Below are positions 4,722-5,245 of a stretch of 64,000 bases of DNA, piece after piece; position 1 is the first letter of the stretch; each line of letters begins with the position of its first letter. Both the position numbers and the translations under genes were made by a program. The DNA comes from Saccostrea cucullata. Lineage: Eukaryota. Under the pieces are notes generated by a model, which saw nothing but the letters and a program-made list of their open reading frames with translations, was not told the origin of the DNA and made no database searches. The stretch covers positions 1-64,000 of the forward strand of contig NW_026935570.1 in assembly GCF_032062105.1 (NCBI RefSeq), written 5' to 3'.

Positions 4722-5245
4722 TCACATTATCACAGAATGTTCCTTAATGATATCAATTGAATTCGGTCCATTCCGTCTCGAAATTCGCCTCTTCTTCACG
4801 ACAACTCCATCGCACTGGGTGGACGCATCACTCACGGTCGGTGTCTCTCGGTCGCACTGCACGGCGGCATCCTTCTGTAGCAATCCTGTCCTCGCTTCAC
4901 AACTTACGGATGTTTGTACATGGCTGTGTGTCGCTGGTTTGTCTCTCTATGGGTTGAAGACAGGCATCGGCTGAGTGCGGCGCCGGATTGTACATGTACC
5001 ATCATCCTCTGTTTTTTGCCTCGGTTTCTCCTGCTCGGCGTGTGCTGAATGTCGGCGCTCGTAATGCCTCTTCATATCGGCCATTCTTTCTGACGTATAC
5101 TCACAATGGTCACACTTGATTCTTTTGTCGTGCTTTTGGCCAATATGCTCCACAAAACTTCTTCAGGACTCTGGAACATCTCGATACAAAGTGGACATTT
5201 ATGCATGGCGTTTACTTTCCTTACGGTATTCTTCGTCCTCGCCAT
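4722..5245 (-). pseudogene. Gypsy 1 extra 3' ORF: H3-tail-like N-terminus, two C2H2 zinc fingers, LC8-type motifs, basic patch (~173 aa reconstructed)
   Basis: ATG at 5245 gives MARTKNTVRKVNAMHKCPLC...; frameshift near 5155; CDHCEYTSERMADMKRHYERRH; in-frame TAG at 4947-4949; then DAAVQCD, DASTQCD, KKRRISRR to TGA at 4722. Confidence 0.75.

Follow-up and report, generated by a model that had tools for sequence, protein, structure and literature searches.

An accessory zinc-finger ORF with a conserved histone H3-like N terminus in Ty3/Gypsy retrotransposons of Saccostrea cucullata

Introduction

Why would a retrotransposon carry, behind pol, a gene whose product begins like histone H3? The question is raised by a 64,000-nucleotide stretch of the Saccostrea cucullata genome (contig NW_026935570.1, positions 1 to 64,000; hereafter the window), in which a Ty3/Gypsy element has a third open reading frame (ORF3) starting MARTKNTVRK. 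Animal retrotransposons have few known counter-silencing proteins. Histone mimicry has been described for viruses and host proteins; for retrotransposons, no description of it, or of an H3-mimic ORF3, was found in the PMC open-access and bioRxiv literature, and Repbase, Dfam, GyDB or subscription journals may note the ORF. In the main text of a mollusc Gypsy survey (PMC6238403), the terms “ORF” and “zinc finger” are absent.

The NS1 protein of influenza H3N2 is a viral histone mimic, a nonhistone protein with an H3K4-like peptide (excerpts of PMC8166343). Host counterparts, the H3TMs, include VRK1, PAF15/PCLAF, FOG, SALL, and BCL11 and follow the rule iM-Z1-R2-X3-K4 (PMC8166343 and bioRxiv 10.1101/2022.06.14.496052, both in part). 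The residue after Met is A in H3, V in PAF15, and P in VRK1, so that V1 and P1 are tolerated (PMC8166343, in part). A third ORF after pol is known from the non-env ORF3s of rotifer LTR elements (excerpts of PMC5408684) and from the env of errantiviruses (excerpts of PMC13524379), and CERV of the Caenorhabditis elegans element Cer1 is a nuclear accessory protein that is made from a spliced mRNA and exports genomic RNA (PMC10309623, in part). The accessory third ORF and histone mimicry are each already known; it is their combination that was not found in print in the literature searched.

Results and Discussion

The Gypsy element of the window is dead

The element lies on the minus strand and has the following features.

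4181-17037, minus strand: whole Ty3/Gypsy element, LTR to LTR, complete in parts but broken
17038-17041 (after the 5' LTR) and 4177-4180 (before the 3' LTR): target-site duplication GTAC
16581-17037, minus strand: 5' LTR
16562-16578, minus strand: primer binding site, begins TGGTGGCAGCG
14233-16535, minus strand: gag (CCHC knuckle) and protease, by Pfam; stop near 16194
7716-14232, strand not assigned: 6.5-kb insertion separating protease from RT, with FLYWCH and MULE transposase ORFs
5544-7715, minus strand: pol (RT, RNase H, integrase, by Pfam), frameshift at the RT/RNase H border
5246-5543, minus strand: integrase C-terminal linker, open, in the same frame as ORF3
4643-4655, minus strand: polypurine tract (PPT)
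4181-4639, minus strand: 3' LTR

The LTR pair, target-site duplication, primer binding site, and PPT identify an LTR retrotransposon, and the Pfam order of gag, protease, RT, RNase H, and integrase is that of Gypsy elements. No chromodomain was found at the integrase C terminus in the five proteins checked, which sets the element apart from the chromoviruses. The two LTRs differ by 10 mismatches in 453 aligned bases and three small indels. This copy is dead: besides the 6.5-kb insertion and the loss of about 560 nt from the 3' part of integrase at 5544, there are further breaks.

The insertion consists of DNA transposons nested inside the Gypsy element. It contains nested inverted-repeat pairs (7826/13914, 8756/12643, and 11136/12172), and its FLYWCH and MULE transposase ORFs are on the plus strand at 9403-10847. 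Outside the element, the window holds tandem repeats at 18473-19555 (about 147 bases), 2727-2970 (23-51), and 1469-1875 (163). The C terminus of pol carries the motif R-x-R-x-x-P-x-[WYH]-x-x-D-[YF] in nearly all families, with or without ORF3 (about 5330-5365 in the window).

ORF3 of the window copy

5250-5276, minus strand: predicted 3' splice site, with a pyrimidine tract and two CAG triplets, whose last bases are at 5258 and 5250
4753-5245, minus strand: ORF3, a broken accessory gene with zinc fingers, 94-95% identical at the nucleotide level to two naturally open sisters
5216-5245, minus strand: Met and H3-like tail ARTKNTVRK
5130-5197, minus strand: zinc finger 1, C2H2 in the window family, with a frameshift inside
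5049-5114, minus strand: zinc finger 2, C2H2; weak Pfam matches below cutoff
4809-4925, minus strand: three TQT-like motifs (HVQTS, DAAVQCD, and DASTQCD), predicted LC8 sites

An earlier note on this DNA had drawn attention to the minus-strand ATG at 5245, and its reading of the N terminus holds: after Met, seven of nine residues are identical to ARTKQTARK, and among the 2671 Met positions in the six frames of the window this is the sole case with at least five matches to the H3 tip. The placement of the ORF in a Gypsy element, downstream of integrase and ahead of the PPT, the zinc-finger signatures CPLC and CDHC-x12-HYERRH, and the broken state of this copy were likewise borne out. The damage is not the single 2-nt frameshift described there, however, but three breaks, namely an in-frame stop at 4947-4949 flanked by frameshifts near 5154 and near 4779. 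The end at 4722 and the length of 173 amino acids (aa) have to be corrected because they included an out-of-frame tail; the stop of the open sisters, which are 129-171 aa long, aligns near 4753. Finger 1 is real, but the sequence proposed for it, EEFVE-HIGQKH, reads EEVLEHIG[QL]KH in the open sisters.

A DNA search gave 35 matches. The MARTK-type motif occurs at 18 distinct loci, five of them open for 129-164 aa, and two more open copies, of 144 and 171 aa, have variant tails. When an env-type fusion glycoprotein was sought in ORF3, Pfam gave zinc-finger families only, which distinguishes the element from errantiviruses. ORF3 as an env was rejected, its predicted structure consisting of fingers, disorder, and a hairpin. 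In the parts of the rotifer and errantivirus papers available, the third ORFs encode fusogens, GDSL esterases, or DEDDy exonucleases, whereas ORF3 encodes zinc fingers and an H3-like tail.

ORF3 recurs in many families and in bivalve records

Protein searches of the genome returned at least 70 and at least 114 matches. From these, 100 matched places were fetched (40 plus 60), including matches that did not cover the tail, and ORF3 was located by a profile without the tail. It was matched in 96 of the 100, and 73 had a usable Met, i.e., one lying 8-20 residues upstream of the first Cys. ORF3 belongs to many distant families of this genome, and in full elements it is always found in the same place after pol, about 20-180 nt downstream of the pol stop, across an AT-rich gap.

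Database relatives come from records of Saccostrea, Ostrea, Argopecten, Mizuhopecten, Ylistrum, Pecten, and Pinctada, plus unnamed ones, and one ORF3 of this genome is identical to a protein annotated in an oyster record. No named relative from outside the bivalves was among the matches, in searches that favor close kin. Among the best 150 rows of the profile search, which long zinc-finger proteins flood, 26 single-stretch matches span most of the profile. The genomic setting of the database proteins is known only where integrase is fused (P0180 and P0024). Named relatives are labeled REST-like, hunchback-like, HIVEP3-like, or uncharacterized and are often multicopy. The RefSeq proteins P0003, P0008, P0012, P0015, P0070, P0079, and P0187 (REST-, HIVEP3-, or hunchback-like) are likely misannotated retrotransposon genes, and retrotransposon ORFs probably account for many of the gene models called “REST-like” or “hunchback-like” in bivalves. 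The records of two ORF3 relatives, P0078 and P0180, belong to the MAG of a bacterial symbiont and to a metagenome from an invertebrate; both relatives are probably host DNA within those assemblies.

The tail is conserved in the register of H3

To describe the tail, 133 natural proteins, comprising genome loci and 60 of 75 database members, were grouped into 44 clusters at 70% finger identity. The other 15 database members had no Met in range, most of them being gene calls that start at a later Met. Counted in the H3 register from Met, T3-K4-x-T6 is carried by the representatives of 39 of the 44 clusters and R8-K9 by those of 23. Residue 1 is of the small type that permits Met removal in 40, and R2 occurs in just one, the window family. 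The weighted frequencies are V 0.41, P 0.27, and A 0.16 at position 1; K 0.41 and N 0.34 at position 2; T3 0.88, K4 0.95, and T6 0.92; P7 0.56, R8 0.61, and K9 0.68; and, at position 10, E 0.36 with S under 0.05. Five clusters miss T3-K4-x-T6, one of which has a cluster mate with a full tail (P0253). All of this is kept while overall ORF3 identity is about 28%. Since the clusters share ancestry, the counts describe one long-kept motif and not 44 independent events.

At least four of nine identities to ARTKQTARK were found in 35 of the 44 tails versus 15 of 8451 internal 9-mers, and in 1 of 122 N termini of unrelated zinc-finger proteins. K4 always lies at the same distance from Met, whereas its distance to the first Cys ranges between 6 and 12 (19 in P0023); this ties the motif to the N terminus and not to the finger. 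In a sample chosen independently of the tail (20 of 150 elements found by RT alone, contigs fetched before being excluded), four elements had ORF3, all four with the tail in register and an acceptor-like signal upstream.

The earlier expectation that ARTKxTxRK would be conserved from residue 1 thus stands in part: T3, K4, and T6 and, more weakly, R8 and K9 are conserved in register, but R2 and A1 (about 16%) are not. Similarly, of the K4/K9-type mimicry proposed, the K4 register extends through the clade, but the ARKS context of K9 is absent (S10 under 5%). The window family, on the most divergent RT branch (root unsure), is the most H3-like outlier of the clade; judged from the aligned tails, the clade requirement appears to be T3, K4, and T6, then R8 and K9, plus a removable Met. 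The dozens of natural tail variants resemble a mutational scan that points at the host target, with T3, K4, and T6 needed and R2 not.

WDR5, UHRF1-type PHD domains, and LSD1 need R2 of H3. They were rejected as clade-wide targets because R2 is missing in 43 of the 44 clusters. The H3TM rule iM-Z1-R2-X3-K4 likewise fits the window family (MARTK) and none of the other 43 clusters. SNAG repressors have a PRSFLV-type N-terminal motif with R2, and no such motif was found in the ORF3 tails.

As far as excerpts describe them, H3TMs share with ORF3 a small residue 1 (A, V, or P), K4 in register, and often zinc fingers thereafter; they are, however, host genes defined by R2, whereas ORF3 keeps T3, T6, R8, and K9 instead. 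Viral mimics and ORF3 are alike in that a selfish genome encodes an H3K4-like peptide (PMC8166343, in part). In ORF3, unlike in viral mimics, an endogenous retrotransposon supplies the motif, the protein bears zinc fingers, and the motif stands in H3 register at the predicted true N terminus and is retained across dozens of families. We hold it somewhat more probable than not that the tail works as an H3 mimic, whichever its sign.

The sign could be negative. ORF3 would then use the same H3-mimic tail in the manner of FOG, SALL, and BCL11, or of Snail, to bring a co-repressor to the LTR and so keep copy number down or set the timing of expression. NuRD is indeed bound by host zinc-finger proteins through their H3-like N termini (PMC8166343, in part), the layout of tail plus fingers is identical, and losing a repressor would favor ORF3-less sisters. 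The tails of FOG, SALL, and BCL11 have the R2 that nearly all ORF3 clusters lack, however, and purifying selection in dozens of families would be harder to sustain for a repressor than for an activator; self-repression strikes us as improbable.

ORF3 is under purifying selection in five of six families

Selection was estimated as pN/pS from the distinct substitutions among naturally open copies, values that are inflated because of postinsertion decay. The window family (7 copies) has a pN/pS of 0.46, with 0.20 for the fingers, and four other families have 0.33, 0.39, 0.21, and 0.15; finger values in these five of the six families are 0.08-0.30. The sixth, with three close copies, has 0.96 and hence no purifying selection. 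The selection check proposed in the earlier note thus came out as purifying (0.15-0.46 in five of six families), and open copies exist among the sisters, whose intactness it had made decisive. In the window family, selection could act on an integrase fusion.

The remaining doubt raised there, a one-off capture of a host gene, does not fit homologous ORF3s in many families and in bivalve records. In its broader form this explanation makes ORF3 a captured fragment of a host zinc-finger gene that drifts without function and resembles H3 by chance, as the REST-, hunchback-, and HIVEP3-like names in RefSeq and the many elements without ORF3 might suggest. The named records are multicopy, however, and the constant position after pol in full elements, the purifying selection, and a tail kept at such low overall identity largely refute capture and drift, which we consider extremely improbable.

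Fingers, disorder, and TQT motifs follow the tail

In a structure predicted for a 228-aa member from an alignment of 23 rows, the fingers (pLDDT 87-97) and a hairpin at the C terminus are confident, the tail is unstructured, and the middle is of low confidence. Most families have a C2HC finger 1, the window family a C2H2 one; the fingers may bind DNA. Beyond the fingers, conservation is concentrated in an acidic W-x-DPG block, which the window family does not have, a GR-x-x-RK-x-T-x-P block, and the TQT-like motif. Foldseek with the ORF3 model gave nothing at an E value of ≤0.001, with weak C2H2 arrays only, and the ESM Atlas gave unnamed clusters and generic zinc fingers, without taxa.

ORF3 carries one to three TQT-like motifs. 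A TQT-like anchor lies within the last 75 residues of 102 of 109 proteins of at least 150 aa (shuffles: mean 34, maximum 45); its Q is nearly invariant, and the low pLDDT upstream agrees with the anchor-in-disorder arrangement of LC8 partners. Some of these motifs are close to the optimal LC8 site VSRGTQTE, although many anchor-bearing peptides fail to bind LC8 (PMC6607443, in part). The homodimer prediction for the C-terminal 57 residues scored 0.02. ASCIZ/ATMIN and other LC8 partners also have TQT motifs in a disordered stretch downstream of zinc fingers, but these are host proteins and, in the excerpts available, have no H3-like tail (PMC6607443).

The same anatomy would suit a different function, in which the tail is a phosphoregulated basic motif (CDK-type T-P-R-K, nuclear import) and ORF3 a Rev- or CERV-like factor that uses LC8 in RNA or particle trafficking. 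The commonest tail, T-P-R-K, is what we take to be a look-alike of a CDK site and basic patch. P7 is present in 25 of the 44 clusters, besides R8-K9 in the 23 given above, and the C2HC form of finger 1 and the TQT motifs point the same way. However, 16 of the 19 clusters that lack P7 retain T6, conservation is higher at T3 and K4 than at R8-K9, and the motif is locked to Met, which neither import signals nor CDK sites need. The precedent is CERV, a spliced accessory protein that exports genomic RNA and is phosphoregulated (PMC10309623, in part). CERV resembles the proposed ORF3 protein, by description only, in being translated from spliced mRNA of an animal LTR retrotransposon and serving as an accessory protein in the nucleus; it differs in exporting genomic RNA and in having no H3-like tail reported in the excerpts available (PMC10309623). 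A trafficking role is, in our estimate, unlikely, though less so than self-repression.

A predicted splice acceptor precedes most ORF3 ATGs

An acceptor-like signal, taken as YAG within 16 nt of the ATG, preceded by 16 bases of which 11 or more are pyrimidines (thresholds fixed after the sequences had been looked at), precedes 69 of 73 ORF3 ATGs versus 487 of 14501 (3.4%) other ATGs of the same loci. Acceptor-to-ATG phases are divided 13/7/3 among 23 family representatives, so that all three occur and phase 0 is overrepresented; at one locus the stretch from acceptor to ATG contains an in-frame stop, and a purine occupies position -3 in 59 of the 73 ORF3s. The acceptor signal, mixed phases, in-frame stop, and -3 purine point to a spliced mRNA with its own start, and expression of ORF3 from such an mRNA is likely on this sequence evidence. 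The acceptor and the small residue 1 also favor a tail that would stand at the true N terminus after Met removal.

Donors were sought in 11 full elements and then in about 20; no site is shared by every family, and the window family has no strong donor upstream of gag. Donor-like sites lie inside the LTR of several families, and a K|VR site lies in gag in some families only. No splice joint was found in four RNA runs on a sister element without its 3' LTR, where two poly(A) runs supplied only 13 and 6 reads and two contig sets gave flat, DNA-like cover; this is no proof that splicing does not occur.

The earlier note had ORF3 as an ORF set apart at the env position, which is right for most other families but not for the window family. 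There, the 32 codons upstream of the ATG are open and in the integrase frame in 13 of 20 distinct copies, so that ORF3 is not free-standing at the DNA level; in the other seven the linker is shifted or closed. The integrase-ORF3 frame is also open in P0180, P0024, and the related database protein P0258. RefSeq model P0229 joins about 60 residues of Gag-like N terminus to the ORF3 Met, and models P0081 and P0172 join ORF3 to what looks like an integrase tail. Finally, deletion derivatives present in 5, 3, and 1 copies fuse Gag-protease in frame to ORF3, with the tail mostly cut.

These forms suggest that ORF3 might work as an extension of integrase or Gag, tethering the integration complex to chromatin in place of the chromovirus chromodomain, with the tail internal or released by protease. 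The open frames, the Gag-joined model, and the multicopy derivatives all favor such a fusion. It is contradicted by the stop and AT-rich gap before the ATG in most families, by the varying acceptor phases, by the shifted or closed linkers of the window family, and by a Met that is invariant in a 30-sequence alignment, albeit one whose rows were picked to begin at a Met. We judge a fusion role to be no more probable than self-repression.

The derivatives (L116, L124, L126, L132, and L136; L083, L108, and L110; L135; and P0141) are open for up to 874 aa, have no RT nearby, and are possibly amplified nonautonomous elements.

ORF3 has been lost repeatedly

Twelve of the 20 RT-chosen elements lack ORF3, and in another four, insertions or truncation obscure the answer; a known ORF3 lies near at least 40 of the 150 RT matches. 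Six of six sister pairs, drawn from five families, show 88-97% identity between carrier and ORF3-less element on both sides of a gap that removes the acceptor plus the ORF. One ORF3-less element retains the last ORF3 codons, which demonstrates loss. A quick RT tree (root unsure, rows from this genome only) forces at least six changes of ORF3 presence on well-supported branches. Repeated loss from near-identical sisters indicates that ORF3 is accessory and likely acts in trans. Pairs of carrier and noncarrier sisters are a natural system for trans-acting public goods among transposons.

A proposed role in escape from silencing

Our leading interpretation, which is tentative, is that ORF3 encodes a spliced, nuclear H3-tail mimic that acts in trans as a chromatin decoy or adaptor and helps the element escape silencing. 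In a spliced subgenomic mRNA, the acceptor immediately before the ATG would be joined to the element's 5' end, and Met removal, with A, V, P, T, or S as residue 1, would free the H3-like end. Host proteins that do not need R2 would then bind or modify T3-K4-x-T6-x-R8-K9, the candidates being ADD, CW, and some PHD domains and K4 methyltransferases. The first three presumably fit a reading of T3/K4/T6 without R2, and host genome matches over cutoff include ADD_ATRX, ADD_DNMT3, and six zf-CW; the host domains are divided among exons. LC8 on the TQT motifs may dimerize the protein, giving two tails and four fingers; the fingers would place it on the LTR or RNA of the element, where it could draw in activating machinery or occupy silencing readers. 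Sisters without ORF3 would be free riders on the protein. In its most specific form, on which we are somewhat more hesitant, an LC8-dimerized mimic acts at its own loci to block or divert H3K4 readers that are indifferent to R2, a public good exploited by ORF3-less cheaters.

Transposon-encoded, trans-acting accessory factors against silencing do exist: VANC of the plant VANDAL transposons has this function. VANDALs are plant DNA transposons and VANC has another fold, and for ORF3 anti-silencing is only what we infer.

Other elements in the sample

The ORF3-less elements are L161, L163, L164, L167, L171-L174, and L177-L180, several of them with a long open pol; for L174/L179/L180 and L172, no near ORF3-bearing sister was found in the sample. 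Head-to-tail arrays of whole elements occur on G000:C6271 and C9170 (L061 and L090) and on G000:C3756, C9972, and C18637, with spacings of 6764, 7878, and 5970 bases and 99.8-99.9% identity where compared; either true tandem insertion or an effect of assembly may explain them. Nested in the opposite orientation within a sister copy, at L091:4286-6508, is a more distantly related Gypsy element, which served as the outgroup.
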